Both the position numbers and the translations under genes were made by a program. DNA of 64,000 nt from a virus (Duplodnaviria; Caudoviricetes), in IMG/VR virus record IMGVR_UViG_3300028186_000155, one strand, 5' to 3'. Shown in pieces: positions 41,396 to 58,409 of this stretch. The notes beneath the pieces were generated by a model, which was not told the origin of the DNA, ran no database searches, and saw only the letters and a list, made by a program, of their open reading frames with translations. The stretch's first letter is position 1; every line of letters starts with the position of its first letter.

Positions 41396-41641
41396 TCAAA
41401 TGCGGGTTACATGAATGCTGATAATGTCGTCGGGGTTAATGTGGTCTTCACCCTCGGTGGTCATGTGCTCATACAGCGTTTCGCCCGCCATGCGCAGCAC
41501 TTCGTTAATCGGGTGCGGTATGTAGGTGCCTGCTGCATCATGCGACGGATAGGTGCGAGCCAGTTCGGTATCTTTGCAGCCACCTTTTACGGCTTGCACG
41601 CACACCACGCGGAAATGCGGTTCACGTCGTTCATTGGTCAT
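41396..41641 (-). CDS. hypothetical protein
   Basis: GAGGA SD. Confidence 0.7.
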   Translation of the reverse strand: MTNERREPHFRVVCVQAVKGGCKDTELARTYPSHDAAGTYIPHPINEVLRMAGETLYEHMTTEGEDHINPDDIISIHVTRI

Positions 41642-41651
41642 GGATTTTTCC

Positions 41652-42041
41652 TCAGAGGCTTACTGGAATGCCCGCCGCAATTTCTGCGCGGCGAACGTCG
41701 TCCTGCGTCAGAGTTTTATGCAGGGTTTTTGTGACGAAGAAACAGAAAACGTCGCTGGCCTCAAGTTCACCGTTGGCCAACATTTCTTGCAGCGCTTGGT
41801 TGCCACGCTCGATCACGTTGGACACTGGATCGGGGATATAACGCCCGTCAATGTCGAAGGCTTCCAGCGTGGATGCCAGTTCGATTTCGGATTGCCCGTC
41901 AAACATTTTGCTGAAGAGTTTCACGGTGGCGCGATACTGATCCTCATGCCACGTTTTCGATTGCTGGCGTTTCAGGTTTGCATCACGCGCCGCTTCTACC
42001 GCCAGACGCAGATCGTCAACCGTTGGATTTTCTTTGCTCAT
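41652..42041 (-). CDS. hypothetical protein
   Basis: TAATG coupling. Confidence 0.7.
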   Translation of the reverse strand: MSKENPTVDDLRLAVEAARDANLKRQQSKTWHEDQYRATVKLFSKMFDGQSEIELASTLEAFDIDGRYIPDPVSNVIERGNQALQEMLANGELEASDVFCFFVTKTLHKTLTQDDVRRAEIAAGIPVSL

Positions 42042-42463
42042 TATCGGATTCCATAATCGTAGGCTTTCAACCGGCCTTGCCGGTCGTACCCAACTTGTGC
42101 ACAGTCCACGGAATCAACCCACACAGGCAGATTCCTTGGGCGTTTAACGTCATGGTGTAGGCGCTGCAAACGTTCCTGCATAACACAGCAGAAACCCATA
42201 AACTCGACACGACGGCTACGGGCCTTTGTAGGGCCACGGTGACGGCCTTCGTAATTGTTGTCAGCTTCGCCATTCAGGCTACGCGGAAACTTGAGCACAA
42301 AACCGCGACCGGTAGAGAACACCAGACGATTGCGCCCGGCGTCGATTGGCCTTCCGTATTTGCGGGCCAAAATCTGTAGGGCTTCGTCGGCCTTGGCGCT
42401 CAGTTCAGGATTATCTGCAAACACTTTAGGCAGCAAAATATATCGACCTACACCTCGATTCAT
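42041..42463 (-). CDS. minimal protein-kinase-like fold protein (140 aa)
   Basis: IDAGRNRLVF, FVLKFP, N..E, VMQE, D...VG, AYDYG in kinase order. Confidence 0.6.
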   Translation of the reverse strand: MNRGVGRYILLPKVFADNPELSAKADEALQILARKYGRPIDAGRNRLVFSTGRGFVLKFPRSLNGEADNNYEGRHRGPTKARSRRVEFMGFCCVMQERLQRLHHDVKRPRNLPVWVDSVDCAQVGYDRQGRLKAYDYGIR

Positions 42464-42464
42464 T

Positions 42465-43217
42465 TTAGTGCACCACGTGGCCCGGAACGTTGAGACGAAC
42501 CAGCGTGCGCTCGCAGTCGAACGCCACTGGCAGCGATTCATGGATAAACGAAACGTTACCCTGATAAACACGATTTGGCAGCATGATGATTTCTTGCATG
42601 TGGCTCAGGTCCAAATGCGTCACATCACCACCAATCGAAATCGGCCCGTCGAATTCCCCGATCAAGCCGCGACTCGCGCAAACGTTGGTCGCCAAAATGA
42701 TCGATTCGGGTTTGTCGTTGATATCGAAATACCAGCTAGGCGTCGGTGTATCCCAACGGCCTTTCAGGTAGGCGCTACGGTGCCCTTGGTGGCCACCAAT
42801 AGCTGCGATGGAACCGTGACGCGGTTGCGGATTGCTTGGGCCGTGGAAAGGTCGGGAAGGCTGGCCACCACCGTGCGCTGATTTGGTCATGTGAGAACCA
42901 CCGCCGTGACCGGGTTCTGGTGCAGGTTTAGAACCGTGCCCGCCACCACCGTGCGCCTGAATCATTGGGTGCCAATAACCATCGACGTGCAGGCCGGGGC
43001 GACGGTGCGTGACATTGGCCTTCACCGCTTTCTGATCGATCATCAAATAAATCGGCCCGTCAGTATCGACGCCGACCAACATTTGATCCACGGTTTCTTG
43101 CCAGCGTTTCAGGCTTTCAGGCAAACCCTGTTCCATGCGAAATTCGTGCATGTAAACACGCTCGCCCAAAAACGCAGGGAAATCTACAGAACCAACTTCA
43201 CGTGCTACTGAAATCAT
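42465..43217 (-). CDS. 2OG-Fe(II) oxygenase-like protein with Gly/His-rich insert
   Basis: RPGLHVDG (HxD), distal HES, R...R. Confidence 0.65.
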   Translation of the reverse strand: MISVAREVGSVDFPAFLGERVYMHEFRMEQGLPESLKRWQETVDQMLVGVDTDGPIYLMIDQKAVKANVTHRRPGLHVDGYWHPMIQAHGGGGHGSKPAPEPGHGGGSHMTKSAHGGGQPSRPFHGPSNPQPRHGSIAAIGGHQGHRSAYLKGRWDTPTPSWYFDINDKPESIILATNVCASRGLIGEFDGPISIGGDVTHLDLSHMQEIIMLPNRVYQGNVSFIHESLPVAFDCERTLVRLNVPGHVVH

Positions 43218-43444
43218 TTCTTTTTCCTTGATTGTTGCCGCATTTTCTTTTTGATTTTGCGCTTTGCTCGCAGCTTTCTGGCACCGGGGCAGCCGTAACC
43301 GATCCGGTTAGAATTGCGCCCCGCTGTTCCACCAATTTCCCAGCGTGGTGAACTTTCGGTGATTACCTTGGGCATTGCAGATTGTGCCATCTGCGCAGCC
43401 AACGCCAGCGCCGAGAAATGCCCAAGGATGGAAACGCGCTTCAC
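43214..43444 (-). CDS. small Lys/Arg-rich protein
   Basis: ends PGARKLRAKRKIKKKMRQQSRKKK. Confidence 0.7.
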   Translation of the reverse strand: MKRVSILGHFSALALAAQMAQSAMPKVITESSPRWEIGGTAGRNSNRIGYGCPGARKLRAKRKIKKKMRQQSRKKK

Positions 43445-43671
43445 AGCAGCGCCTCAGCCGATGCAATCACAGGAATAAAACTCGCAGGAACATTCACGTT
43501 GTTATTTAACAGTCCGGCTTGTTCGTTGGCTGTGCCTTCATGTCGCCAGTGCATTGCGTATTTCCCCTTGGGAGTAGTGACCACAACTGACTGCGCAATT
43601 TTGGCCACGTATTCACCAGAACGATTCTCGCGAATCAGCCACATGGTTTCTGTTTTCTGTTCGTTACTCAC
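43441..43671 (-). CDS. small protein, family C domain
   Basis: WLIRENRSGEYV...AMHW. Confidence 0.7.
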   Translation of the reverse strand: MSNEQKTETMWLIRENRSGEYVAKIAQSVVVTTPKGKYAMHWRHEGTANEQAGLLNNNVNVPASFIPVIASAEALL

Positions 43672-44312
43672 CGGAAAGCCCGCCCTGTTACCTCGCCTTT
43701 GTTGCCAGCGTGAAGCAAAACGACCGTGATCCCGTAGCGTGTCGATTGCGGCCCTCGCAGCGAATCACGAACTTGCAACGCCAAATCACGCCCGGTAATC
43801 AGCATTGCACGGTCCAACGATTCATCGGTGCGGATATCCGGGCCAACCAGCGCAGTGATGTAGCGATTGTGGTGATTGTCGCAAATCGCGTACAGCGCTG
43901 TGTCTTCTGCTTCTGGCTCTGCTTCTTTTTCGAAGGCTGGGCGACGGAAATTATATTCACCTTCAGCGCTACCCGGCACGCGTACAAAACCGTTACGCAG
44001 CAAAACTTCGCGCAGCATTTCGTTGTGCACCTGATCTACCCACATGGCGTCGTAGCCCAGTGTGTGACACTGCGCAACAAAGTGCACCAGAAAATCACGG
44101 AACAAACCTTGCCCGCGTTTTGCTGGGTCTACATCGACACGGGACAGCACCATTGCGTTTTCCCACACGTTGGTGCCGGGCACTATGCGATTGTTGGCCC
44201 GCACGTAAACCACAATGCCTTCCTCGCTCACAAACTCTTTCGAGCGTGGGAATTTCTGGCCTTTGCGTTCCTCGAAAAACGCGTAGAGTTCTTGGTAGAA
44301 TTTATGGCTCAT
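43668..44312 (-). CDS. GNAT acetyltransferase fused to family C domain
   Basis: VDVDPAKRGQGLF; N..L...L.RNGF. Confidence 0.8.
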   Translation of the reverse strand: MSHKFYQELYAFFEERKGQKFPRSKEFVSEEGIVVYVRANNRIVPGTNVWENAMVLSRVDVDPAKRGQGLFRDFLVHFVAQCHTLGYDAMWVDQVHNEMLREVLLRNGFVRVPGSAEGEYNFRRPAFEKEAEPEAEDTALYAICDNHHNRYITALVGPDIRTDESLDRAMLITGRDLALQVRDSLRGPQSTRYGITVVLLHAGNKGEVTGRAFR

Positions 44313-44890
44313 ATTTCACCTCGCTGTTGTGCCTTCAGCACCTTTTGCAAAAATGCCCGTTTCCGGCGTTGTAGGATTACCCGCACCGCGTCACCGTAAT
44401 AAGGCTGCGGCAGGTCTTTCAATTTCCCGGCCCGCGCCAATTCGGCGTTGGTGTCTTTGAGTTCCTTTTCCCCGAACGTGCAGTCAGGAACGAAAATCAG
44501 ATTGCGTTCGAAGAAATGTTCCGATCCGGGGTAGCCTTCGTAAGCACTGATAACGCGCCGGTCGTAATTCTCGAAATCACGCAGGCGGCTGATCAACGCA
44601 GAACCTACGCCCTGCCTGCGATTTTCCGGTTTCACGTAAAGCTGAATGTGGCTGCGGTTTATTTCGTAAACCAGCGCCCCGTAAAACGTCCAGTGTGGGA
44701 AATATGCGCTGCCCTTTTCCAACTCACAGGCAACCACCACCAAAACCTTGCGGCCCTTATTGGTGCCGGTTTCGGCCACACGTTCCCACACGCCCAGCAG
44801 TTCGTCGCCACGATCATCGTAGATGCGCTGGTGCAGCAGCTGTTTGGCCAGACTACGCAAATCGTTTCCCTGATAAACCACGTAGCGCAT
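44309..44890 (-). CDS. GNAT acetyltransferase
   Basis: LYVKPENRRQGVGSALI; FFER; start MRYVV at TAATG. Confidence 0.85.
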   Translation of the reverse strand: MRYVVYQGNDLRSLAKQLLHQRIYDDRGDELLGVWERVAETGTNKGRKVLVVVACELEKGSAYFPHWTFYGALVYEINRSHIQLYVKPENRRQGVGSALISRLRDFENYDRRVISAYEGYPGSEHFFERNLIFVPDCTFGEKELKDTNAELARAGKLKDLPQPYYGDAVRVILQRRKRAFLQKVLKAQQRGEI

Positions 44891-45087
44891 TAACGCTTCC
44901 TCGCCTTGCGTGCTGCCTTGTTTTTGACTTTGCGTTTTGCACGTGCCTTGGCGGCACCCGGTGCACCGCGCCCGCTGGTGGTGATACGGCCCGGATGTGG
45001 ATAGCCAGCAGGGTGTAGCAGCTTGCCAACTTCCTTGCCGATTTTTGCCGTGGTGGTCATCATTTGCATTGCTTGGGTCAGCGTCAC
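44890..45087 (-). CDS. small Lys/Arg-rich protein
   Basis: ends PGAAKARAKRKVKNKAARKARKR. Confidence 0.7.
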   Translation of the reverse strand: MTLTQAMQMMTTTAKIGKEVGKLLHPAGYPHPGRITTSGRGAPGAAKARAKRKVKNKAARKARKR

Positions 45088-45320
45088 TTTTTCTTCCTCG
45101 ATTGCTGGCGCATTTTCTTACGCGCTTTGCGTTTGTCCTTGGCCTTTTGTGCCTTGCGCATTTCGTCAATGCCGATTGGTTGAGGGGCGCGGCTGTCGTA
45201 ACCGGGTAGACTGGCACCAGCACGCATAATACGCGTGTCGCCCATAAGACGTTCACGGGTGGTCGGTGGCATGCGTTCCAGTTCGCTGCTCATGAGTGCA
45301 TCAAACAAATCATTTTTCAT
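45084..45320 (-). CDS. small Lys/Arg-rich protein
   Basis: ends KRKARKKMRQQSRKKK. Confidence 0.7.
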   Translation of the reverse strand: MKNDLFDALMSSELERMPPTTRERLMGDTRIMRAGASLPGYDSRAPQPIGIDEMRKAQKAKDKRKARKKMRQQSRKKK

Positions 45321-46050
45321 TGGCAGGCCTCGCTTCGTTGCTAACAGGAATATCGTGGGTCAGGATGTACACATACGGCATACGGAAACTTTTGCCACGC
45401 GTTTTGATTGTCACTTGATTTGGCAGCAGGCTGCTAATCGGTCCATCAAGGGCTTTCATACCGAAAATGCTTTTGCACGAACGCCCGTTGATAATGGTCG
45501 CCAGTTTCAGCGTTTCGCCAATGTGCAATTCATTGTCAATTTCGGTCGAGTAGTGGGCCGGGCGATTCATCACCGAATACACCAGCTTGAGGAACGTGGC
45601 GTTTGGTGCAAAATAGATATCGTGTTCCAGATCGTGCCACAGGCAATAGGAGCCACGCGGCTGCATAGGGACCGCCAACTGGTGGCGCCCTTCGAAAACG
45701 TCTTGTAGGCCCGCGCTAATGGCTTCAGGGCCTCCCAAGGATTCGAGTGTGCTGGTGCGCAGCAAAGCGTACAGCTTGCGCCCCTGCATGAATGGGGTCA
45801 TATAACGAACGTCGCCGGGGTGGCGGTATTCGTCCGGTTCGAAACGTGGACGGCAATTCAGAACCACAAGCGAATAGGGTTCTTTTTCCAGCATATCGCG
45901 TTGTGTACGCATCCAGCTGAAACCCACGGCGCCACAGTCATATTCGCTGCTGCCCATGATATCGTAGTTAACCAGTTCGGTAAGGCCTTGGCCGCGTTTG
46001 AGTTCGTCATAGCGGAAGGCGGCGCGGTGAATCAGTCGTGGTCGGTACAT
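45310..46050 (-). CDS. hypothetical protein
   Basis: AAGGA SD; YD.MGSSEY motif. Confidence 0.75.
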   Translation of the reverse strand: MYRPRLIHRAAFRYDELKRGQGLTELVNYDIMGSSEYDCGAVGFSWMRTQRDMLEKEPYSLVVLNCRPRFEPDEYRHPGDVRYMTPFMQGRKLYALLRTSTLESLGGPEAISAGLQDVFEGRHQLAVPMQPRGSYCLWHDLEHDIYFAPNATFLKLVYSVMNRPAHYSTEIDNELHIGETLKLATIINGRSCKSIFGMKALDGPISSLLPNQVTIKTRGKSFRMPYVYILTHDIPVSNEARPANEK

Positions 46051-48654: not shown

Positions 48655-48883
48655 CCTTTTCTTTGAGTTCGCGGATGTACGCGTTCTTTTCTGCCAGCAG
48701 CTGTTCCAGATGGATAGCGTGCTGGCGCTGGCGTTCGTAACGGGCTTTCCAACGGTGGTGTGCCCGCACAAAACGGGCGTTCATTTTATCCCAAATATGA
48801 TCGCCGGGCGCTTTGCTCAACAGACGCGCTGCGCGCATGATCATGGCGACCGAGGTAGAACGCCCGTGGTAATGAGTTTTCAT
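48614..48883 (-). CDS. hypothetical coiled-coil protein
   Basis: ATGA-coupled. Confidence 0.65.
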   Translation of the reverse strand: MKTHYHGRSTSVAMIMRAARLLSKAPGDHIWDKMNARFVRAHHRWKARYERQRQHAIHLEQLLAEKNAYIRELKEKVEYLEQPADYFAK

Positions 48884-49704
48884 CGTTCTAGTGCCTCGCA
48901 TTGTTCGGCCCACGTTTGCGGCTGTCCCATCAGGCGAGCCAGCATACCGCTCAAGAATTCACGATGTTCATCCTGTTTGAAGTCCACCATTTTCGGGAAT
49001 TGGAAAGCAACCAATTGATCCCATACCCATTTGGCGAAATCCTCTTCTTTCTGGTTGGTTTCCGGCTGCATGGCCCAATCATACAGACGCATGACCGTTG
49101 CATATTCCTCGATGTGTTCCATACGGGATTCCACACCATGATATTGCTCGATGTGGACAACCGGCATGCCCCCGCGCCGCTCGCTCAGTGCACGCAGTTG
49201 CAGCGCAATAAACATGTAGCGGAATGTTTGGCGGCGTCTTTTTGCAGGATCGATGTGTTTTACTGCGTGCATGGAGCCAATGACGGAACGGTACATTTCA
49301 CGCGGGTCAAAACAGCGATCAACCACAGATTGCAAATGGACACGCCAGTTGCAGGTCGAGTCGTGGTAGCCGAATGGAGTGTAGATCGTTTCGTAGGCCA
49401 CCAATTCAGAACGCGCCAGCTTACGCAGGAATTTTTGTGCCGAAAAAACACGCACATCACATTCCTTGCCCATGAACATCATTTTGCCGCTGAACGAATC
49501 GCGCGGCCAGCGGAAATAATCGTAATCTACATCGTGGCCAACAATCGTGAAATCGTGATCGGAATCTTCGACATTGGTGCCCCATGCCATGCTGCCGGTT
49601 TCGCTGATCAGCAGCGGTTGAATTCCCAGCTGTTCCACTTCGACCACAAGCTGATACATTTGGTCTTCGGTCAACGGCGATTTGATGTGTGGTTTGATCG
49701 TCAT
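48880..49704 (-). CDS. Pol-beta nucleotidyltransferase (RlaP/YcgL/NrdC.11-like)
   Basis: [17 protein letters not shown]; D......KFL..L..S....YE. Confidence 0.8.
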
Positions 49705-57679: not shown

Positions 57680-57690
57680 GTTTACAGATT
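57680..57690 (-). promoter_or_regulatory. motif variant AATCTGTAAAC
   Basis: 10/11 match, between stop and SD. Confidence 0.5.
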
Positions 57691-58409
57691 TAGTAATCGG
57701 TTGGCAGTCTCTTCACGTACTGCACCATGTGCTCAATAGTACGGAACTTGTAGCCGTCTTCGTCCGAAATTTCACAGGCGAATTCGTCTTCGAGGCGCAT
57801 GATCATTTCGATTTGATCGAGCGAATCCATGTGGCCCCATTCTTCCAGATCCGTGTCCAGTGTTAGCGCGTTGGCTTCATCTACAGACACGCTGGATTGT
57901 TCCACCACCATTTCGAAAATCTTGTTGGTGATTTGGTCGCCCCAGTCACGCAATTTGCCACGGCGCGAAATGGTGCCAGATTTTTGCGGCAAGTCTTTTG
58001 GTCGCCAGTTTGCAACCTGTTCCGCCACAGGTTCCGTCACAACCATTTGATCAGCGCGAATCACGGCGCGGGTGCCGGGCGGTGCTGGTTTGGCTTGCCC
58101 TTGTGGGAAGTGTTCCCGTGCTAATTCGATGGCTTTACGCAGGTCCGGTTGCGGATCGAAACGCTGGTGGTGCCACATGATTTCCGTGGTGCCGTTCGGA
58201 TGGCCATTGATCGACAGGCCGGTGTAGGAAAGCCTTGCTTGTTTTTCCAGATAATCGATACGATCCGAATCTGCAAAAGCCATTGCTACTTTGACAGCCA
58301 GCACATTATTTTCCATGGCTTGGCCGTAGTCGTCAAAACTGTTTGGGAAATATTCACGCAGAATGCGCAGCACTCTGGCTTGTTCATGCTCGGTCAGTTT
58401 GTTGGTCAT
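57690..58409 (-). CDS. protein with C-terminal acyl carrier protein domain
   Basis: MDSLDQIEMIMRLEDEFACEISDED..KFRTI...VQYV, Ser196 in DSL. Confidence 0.85.
   Translation of the reverse strand: MTNKLTEHEQARVLRILREYFPNSFDDYGQAMENNVLAVKVAMAFADSDRIDYLEKQARLSYTGLSINGHPNGTTEIMWHHQRFDPQPDLRKAIELAREHFPQGQAKPAPPGTRAVIRADQMVVTEPVAEQVANWRPKDLPQKSGTISRRGKLRDWGDQITNKIFEMVVEQSSVSVDEANALTLDTDLEEWGHMDSLDQIEMIMRLEDEFACEISDEDGYKFRTIEHMVQYVKRLPTDY

Follow-up and report, generated by a model that had tools for sequence, protein, structure and literature searches.

Background

Acetyltransferases resembling Rac, the GNAT of phiKMV-like phages (PMC7552054), are numerous in jumbo phages, and by analogy to Rac they have been proposed to acetylate host proteins (PMC7824862). 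Phages also encode proteins with a protein-kinase-like fold, such as the T7 kinase gp0.7 and JSS1_004 (PMC13645617, PMC12345140), and the T7K family corresponds to PHROG 2828 (PMC13645617). In this work we studied a block of eight genes at positions 42041 to 45320 of a 64,000-nucleotide stretch (the window) of the virus record IMGVR_UViG_3300028186_000155. In order of transcription it encodes two basic-tailed peptides (1 and 2), two GNATs (GNAT1 and GNAT2), a small protein of what we call family C, peptide 3, a 2-oxoglutarate (2OG)-Fe(II) oxygenase-fold protein and a minimal protein-kinase-like protein (Table 1). The original prediction, made from the letters alone, saw in these enzymes a set of writers and erasers acting on the co-encoded peptides. 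We found all eight open reading frames (ORFs) on the minus strand in the order it gave, with overlapping or abutting junctions, and profiles, motifs and fold matches agree with the families it named (GNAT for both acetyltransferases, 2OG-Fe(II) oxygenase, kinase-like). We consider it likely, however, that the block is an accessory array whose enzymes would each act alone on a host target, and whose peptides would be independent nucleic-acid binders.

The GNATs of the block are alike to Rac and the jumbo-phage GNATs in kind and setting, being phage GNATs encoded among the accessory genes of a Pseudomonas phage; GNAT2 differs in carrying an extra C domain. The kinase-like protein shares its type of fold with the T7 kinase but has only 140 amino acids and lacks the C-lobe helices; with DYG in place of DPV, no C-terminal shut-off/DNA-binding domain and no match to PHROG 2828, its membership of the T7 kinase family was rejected. 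SteC, OspG, NleH and HopBF1 also have a truncated kinase fold, and the last three are among the fold matches of the block protein; the predicted kinase is shorter still, with D-x-x-Q rather than D-x-x-x-x-N. The oxygenase-fold protein has the double-stranded beta-helix fold and HxD...H...R arrangement of EvdO2, ColD, PhyH, IDO and the prolyl hydroxylases, but its identity to known 2OG oxygenases is 8-14%, it falls in no specific subfamily, and its family carries a variable His/Gly/Pro insert of 22-138 residues. The peptides are built like the miniproteins of PHROG 8108, 13831, 6410 and 21931 (short, with an Ala-rich N-terminus, a Pro linker and a basic C-terminal helix), but do not match these PHROGs.

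Comparison can also be made with the clusters for ribosomally synthesized and post-translationally modified peptides (RiPPs), with histone-tail modification and with GNAT toxin-antitoxin pairs. As in all three, a small gene stands beside modifying enzymes, but neither protease nor exporter was seen in the block, and RiPP and histone-code systems differ from it in that the block enzymes show no stable co-inheritance with the peptides. A GNAT toxin-antitoxin pair was rejected, as no ribbon-helix-helix family was matched and the peptide tails are strongly basic, not acidic.

Distribution of the block genes in related phages

The window comes from a virus contig of 194,917 bases (63% complete), which belongs to a Lu11/HRDY3-like Pseudomonas jumbo phage. 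Over 55% of its length the block matches the DNA of Pseudomonas phage HRDY3 (314 kb) at 76% identity. The region around the block is colinear with Pseudomonas phage Lu11, with protein identities mostly of 30-65%. A literature search on HRDY3 returned nothing. Eleven loci of this clade span the whole block (the window, HRDY3, L013, L021, L022, L025, L027, L058, L104, L106 and L107).

Two of the eleven have the kinase gene, namely the window and L013, a pair of sisters in the GNAT1 tree (99/97); the nearest other relatives of this gene lie in phages without the peptides. Whole-genome searches showed it to be missing from HRDY3, Lu11 and one 100%-complete IMG/VR relative, and their positive controls gave matches in the window's own genome and in that of L015. 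One recent insertion would explain this pattern. The oxygenase gene directly follows peptide 3 in nine of the eleven loci and is missing from L021 and L106, which lie on separate tree branches; genome-wide, it is absent from Lu11 and from the genome of L021. Outside the clade, profile hidden Markov models (HMMs) found no homologue of the peptides, GNAT1 or GNAT2 within ~4-5 kb at any of 56 oxygenase loci or 23 kinase loci, some of them redundant, in a screen that used GNAT1 and GNAT2 models and that unrelated GNATs would escape. These outside loci include Ackermannviridae, Sinorhizobium, Gordonia and Xanthomonas phages and PaBG. Since both families thrive without the peptides, they are unlikely to exist for peptide modification.

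The kinase and the oxygenase are not tied to the peptides. Both have been gained or lost independently of them, which speaks against a writer/eraser system acting on the co-encoded peptides. Synteny in relatives was the check put forward with the original prediction, and the independent scattering that it named as a refutation is what we found for these two genes.

Possible linkage of the peptides and GNAT1

Besides HRDY3, an exhaustive search with peptide 3 returned the Lu11 peptide only. Lu11 has this single peptide, an orthologue of peptide 3, one gene away from GNAT1, and in two close relatives (L077 and L103) the peptide directly adjoins GNAT1. Peptide and GNAT1 co-occur in every locus of the Lu11/HRDY3 group that is long enough for testing. 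No basic-tailed peptide was found within 4 kb of the GNAT1 relatives in PA1C, Phabio and 201phi2-1. The Lu11 arrangement is the sole evidence of linkage beyond colinearity, and it counts as a single comparison because one block move could carry two neighbours without selection. Of what had been predicted, the enzyme families stand and the modification system does not; a possible peptide-GNAT1 link is left, through the one independent comparison that Lu11 offers.

Enzymes encoded in the block

GNAT1 matches PF13508 (E 9e-6; 26.4 bits against a cut-off of 27 in one scan, 27.5 bits in another) and the acetyltransferase family PHROG 1249. Residues R91, R92 and G94 of its motif A are invariant in the alignments, and its basic RRRKRAF helix is conserved. 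Motif A and the profile match together place it among the predicted GNATs; its distant relatives are found in phiKZ-like phages. GNAT2 has a variant motif A (R-G-x-G-x-F) and weak matches to Pfam (E 0.13) and PHROG, and its family profile matches solved acetyltransferase structures at E 0.008. It is plausibly a more divergent GNAT. The Lu11 orthologue of GNAT2 lacks the family C domain, of which the stand-alone family C protein is a free copy; the whole contig holds two copies of this domain. At least two further GNATs are encoded elsewhere in the contig, and each relative gives four to five GNAT-like matches. Two such GNAT domains of the contig, at positions 149639-149872 and 127850-128038 (outside the window), have no basic-tailed neighbours.

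The oxygenase-fold protein belongs with PHROG 8970, an unannotated family (E 6.5e-56), and has about 500 homologues. In its predicted structure the core has a predicted local distance difference test score (pLDDT) above 90 and the insert is disordered. Among the 50 best structural matches there is hardly any that is not an Fe(II)/2OG oxygenase, the first being EvdO2 (Z 9.1, root-mean-square deviation 3.4 A over 155 aligned residues), and Foldseek gave the same trend (E 0.0065). Across 121 sequences, H77, D79, H226, R237 and R241 never vary; the two Arg lie on strand 235-245 and do not form the canonical RxS. The model indicates a double-stranded beta-helix fold with the HxD...H triad and a 2OG-binding Arg. 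No Pfam family was matched, nor did the profile match any PDB sequence, and the placement comes from the fold search alone. JMJD5 and ALKBH6/7 are matched at Z 7.2-7.6, under the small-molecule oxygenases, and ribosomal and EF-Tu hydroxylases at Z 7.2-7.8. As no subfamily stands out, a demethylase is not favoured above other activities.

The insert lies between the metal ligands and is rich in Gly, His, Pro and Ser; it (42700-42970 in the window) has repeated His motifs (AHG, GHG, GHR, RHG), with H89 and H143 nearly invariant. It could serve in metal binding or be a built-in substrate. A literature search on PHROG 8970-type oxygenases returned nothing. In phiM6 the oxygenase homologue lies near a gamma-glutamyl cyclotransferase, a peptidase C26 and a glutamine amidotransferase; elsewhere the neighbours are a glycosyltransferase (PhiXhv-15), a methyltransferase (a Gordonia phage), or a phosphoadenosine phosphosulfate (PAPS) reductase and NA37 (locus L024). 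Loci L005, L007, L008 and L024 have no such neighbour in common.

The model of the kinase-like protein is confident (pLDDT 92), and its fold matches are almost all kinase-like but weak (best Z 7.0). The family profile matches SteC over the N-lobe at E 0.004. In the alignment the beta3 Lys (K57) and the helix-C Glu (E71) are invariant and G42 nearly so (residues are numbered without the start Met). The catalytic loop reads D119-x-x-Q122, with the Asp in 16 of 18 rows and the Gln invariant; it is atypical, the spacing being shorter than in the canonical D-x-x-x-x-N and Gln replacing Asn. D135, the DFG-like Mg-binding Asp, is invariant within D-Y/F-G. The helical C-lobe is absent throughout the family, the block protein stopping two residues past DYG. 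From the model, the protein is predicted to have the N-lobe of the protein-kinase-like superfamily. It matched no PHROG at E 0.1.

Most members of this minimal family have 113-155 amino acids, end at DYG/DFG and are covered by no Pfam or PHROG model. They are found mainly in large phages, including Paride-like phages, Xoo-sp13 and RSP15. In a 277-kb IMG/VR phage (L015:4956-6632, identical to L037), kinase and oxygenase homologues lie one gene apart, in the opposite order and without peptide or GNAT; this is the sole such case outside the clade.

The basic-tailed peptides

In the 195-kb contig, no basic-tailed peptide other than peptides 1, 2 and 3 is convincing. Peptides 1 and 3 have the tail KKMRQQSRKKK in common, and peptide 2 shares a TSGxGxPGA motif with the peptide 3 family; the three are probably paralogues. 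The ratio of nonsynonymous to synonymous differences (pN/pS) is 0.37-0.47 for peptide 1. Over the final 22 codons of peptides 2 and 3, pN is 0.00-0.22 against a pS of 0.39-0.82 (0.59-0.82 for peptide 2), which argues that the peptides are real proteins with selected tails.

Part of this conservation has another source. All 12 peptide 3 orthologues examined use AGG for the Arg of Q-S-R, 7-9 bases ahead of the next gene, whereas the Arg codon of K-M-R in the same tail is always CGN. As AGGA is the Shine-Dalgarno sequence of the next gene, the last few residues of peptide 3 are partly constrained at the DNA level. The terminal G-x-I of GNAT1 (44309-44325) and S-R-K of peptide 3 (43214-43228) both coincide with the Shine-Dalgarno site of the following gene; where C-terminal codons overlap such sites, terminal conservation in a coupled array is partly a DNA constraint.

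Twenty peptide sequences matched no Pfam or PHROG family significantly. Neither the peptide profile nor the tail matched a PDB chain at E 10, and PF05162 (L41) found no match in the genome even at E 10, in searches whose composition filters lower sensitivity. An identity as eL41-like ribosomal peptides was rejected on these two results. Look-alikes in the ESM Atlas all scored under 0.9 and are all unnamed viral proteins, no homologue was found in GTDB genomes, and a literature search for lysine-rich jumbo-phage miniproteins with GNATs returned nothing.

Similar miniproteins were sought with a degenerate tail pattern (G-x-A-A-A-K/R-R-A-A-K/R-K). At least 73 viral loci match it, mostly in small temperate phages. 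With few exceptions the match stands at the C-terminal end of a short ORF, usually of 55-70 amino acids with an Ala-rich start and a Pro linker. The matched proteins fall in the four PHROGs named above, all unannotated. Their neighbours (loci L111-L183) are replication, recombination and regulatory genes; none is homologous to any of the four enzymes, and PF13508 gave no match beyond the control, in a Pfam scan that covered 106 of 145 clusters with 25 of 76 families listed, and that excludes a second PF13508 match but not a lone match to another GNAT model. In the comparison of the miniproteins with the window peptides, HMM scores had a mean of 8.1 bits, against 3.3 for tail-preserving shuffles, a partly circular test, and the hhalign probability of 2.4% is not significant. 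The likeness between the window peptides and the temperate-phage miniproteins is one of build only.

Explanations of the block

If the block is an accessory array, it would have arisen through local duplications that gave three peptides and two C domains, and through independent insertion of the oxygenase and the kinase; as the peptides have sequence in common, their clustering is the expected outcome of local duplication. Host proteins would be the substrates of the GNATs, much as RNA polymerase alpha is acetylated by Rac. With no substrate-binding lobe of its own, the mini-kinase would dock on a host protein and phosphorylate it, or it may be a pseudokinase that binds nucleotides. For the oxygenase, the substrate to be hydroxylated would be one common to many unrelated phages, and for this reason not these peptides. 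Nucleic-acid binding through the Lys/Arg helix is the most likely role of the peptides, judging from their charge and from the arginine-rich peptides of other phages; miniproteins of this architecture are frequent in the early regions of phages. The fallbacks of the original prediction, peptides as nucleic-acid binders and clustering in an accessory region, are the best-fitting readings. Several points weigh against the accessory array. Peptides 1-3, GNAT1, GNAT2 and the C domain are present in all eleven clade loci and never lost; in Lu11-type phages peptide and GNAT1 lie together at a backbone position ~7 kb from that of the window, with GNAT2 at the window's position; the tail motif KMRxQSR is conserved beyond charge alone; and the substrate of every enzyme is one that we infer. 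The conservation of the core amounts to ordinary colinearity, since flanking genes of 105, 246, 136, 165, 154 and 396 amino acids are kept equally well, in 11 of 11 loci.

A module of two genes, in which GNAT1 acetylates the peptide or is bound or steered by it while the kinase, the oxygenase and GNAT2 are bystanders, appears unlikely. The peptide would then be a charge-tuned nucleic-acid binder, a decoy or an adaptor. The co-occurrence of the two genes, their adjacency in Lu11-like phages at the other backbone position, the coupling of peptide 2 to GNAT1 and the strong purifying selection on the Lys-rich tail would all fit; however, a single rearrangement may account for Lu11, in which a third gene separates the pair, phiKZ-like relatives of GNAT1 have no peptide, and the window's contig and its relatives encode several other GNATs elsewhere. 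GNAT1 is itself basic and would be a poor electrostatic partner of a polybasic tail, and similar miniproteins are widespread without GNATs. The narrower proposal that GNAT1 of Lu11/HRDY3-group phages acetylates the Lys-rich helix of the co-translated miniprotein, and so switches its nucleic-acid or ribosome binding, is slightly less likely again.

We regard as improbable that the cluster is directed at the ribosome, with peptides mimicking eL41/bS22-like proteins or ribosome-rescue tails and with GNATs and oxygenase acting on the translation apparatus. The tail may resemble eL41, and no match was found when this was searched. The GNAT profiles weakly match RimI-type structures, among many others, ribosomal and EF-Tu hydroxylases appear among the oxygenase fold matches, and ribosome-type GNATs have been noted in jumbo phages (PMC7824862); the oxygenase fold matches are, however, not specific, and the PF05162 and PDB searches were negative. 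Very improbable is the full set as first proposed, in which both GNATs, the oxygenase and the kinase act on the three peptides in the manner of a histone code or of RiPP enzymes. The interleaved order, the coupled junctions and the position of the oxygenase directly after peptide 3 would suit it, as would the match of its three chemistries, acetylation, hydroxylation or demethylation and phosphorylation, to those of histone tails. But the presence/absence pattern already largely refutes it, with the kinase in 2 of 11 loci, two losses of the oxygenase within the clade, no oxygenase in Lu11, and both enzymes widespread without peptides. Moreover, no protease, transporter or recognition element was seen in the block, and small-molecule oxygenases, rather than JmjC or AlkB, head the near-tie among the best structural matches of the oxygenase.

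Organisation of the block and its surroundings

The block belongs to a long series of small genes on the minus strand, most of them unannotated, that are coupled in translation. Overlaps of 4 nucleotides join peptide 1 to peptide 2, GNAT1 to GNAT2, GNAT2 to family C, family C to peptide 3 and peptide 3 to the oxygenase; peptide 2 and GNAT1 overlap by 1 nucleotide (TAATG coupling), and a 1-nucleotide gap separates oxygenase and kinase. The upstream gene of 246 amino acids (45310-46050) overlaps peptide 1 by 11 nucleotides, and the downstream gene of 129 amino acids (41652-42041) overlaps the kinase by 1. As the overlaps run past both ends, coupling marks no block boundary. A promoter and terminator scan gave fewer sites than shuffled sequences, and no boundary at the block edges.

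Table 1. Genes of the block in order of transcription (window positions)
Feature	Position	Strand	Characteristics
Peptide 1, basic-tailed miniprotein	45084-45320	minus	78 aa (amino acids), pI (isoelectric point) 10.8; C-terminal end KKMRQQSRKKK
Peptide 2, basic-tailed miniprotein	44890-45087	minus	65 aa, pI 12.0; TSGxGxPGAxKxR motif
GNAT1, predicted acetyltransferase	44309-44890	minus	193 aa, pI 9.4; motif A RRQGVG, basic C-terminal helix conserved
GNAT2, plausible divergent GNAT	43668-44312	minus	214 aa; ~130-aa GNAT domain and C-terminal family C domain
Family C, stand-alone domain copy	43441-43671	minus	76 aa; fused to GNAT2 in HRDY3 and others
Peptide 3, basic-tailed miniprotein	43214-43444	minus	76 aa, pI 11.9; Ala-rich N-terminus, Pro/Gly linker, Lys/Arg helix
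2OG-Fe(II) oxygenase-fold protein (predicted)	42465-43217	minus	250 aa; PHROG 8970; H77-x-D79...H226, R237/R241; disordered His/Gly/Pro insert
Minimal protein-kinase-like protein (predicted)	42041-42463	minus	140 aa; GRNR loop, K57, E71, D-x-x-Q loop, DYG

All eight genes are real. Against four relatives, pN/pS is 0.13-0.62 for seven of them (family C lies outside this set), and all seven are under purifying selection. A 315-amino-acid version of the GNAT1 ORF (GTG at 45256) was rejected as an upstream extension across the peptides in another frame, the orthologues starting at the ATG at 44890.

In the surroundings, the downstream genes at 41396-41641 and 41652-42041 look like mutual paralogues that alternate in relatives, a further local duplication. 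The gene at 48880-49629 encodes a homologue of the RlaP-family nucleotidyltransferases (PF10127 in the Lu11 orthologue), likely a host-conflict enzyme of the same array. The protein of 57690-58409 has an acyl-carrier-protein-like C-terminal domain; its Lu11 homologue shows a faint PF00550 match, and the matching region of HRDY3 has two annotated acyl carrier proteins.

Conclusions

For the most part the block is a common kind of patchwork of accessory genes, in which one peptide-GNAT1 pair at most is of interest; as a system, being an accessory array of known type, it matters little. Three annotations that emerge from it were not found in the libraries or literature searched. PHROG 8970, with hundreds of phage proteins, can be described as a family that combines the 2OG-Fe(II) oxygenase fold with a variable His/Gly insert. 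Neither Pfam nor PHROG covers a phage kinase-like family of about 115-155 amino acids with a D-x-x-Q loop, which differs from T7K. The basic-tailed phage miniproteins form a common class without assigned function. If peptide and GNAT1 were substrate and enzyme, they would provide a phage example of acetylation tuning the charge of a nucleic-acid binder, and the pair would be a small phage analogue of histone-tail acetylation, with the kinase and the oxygenase outside it.

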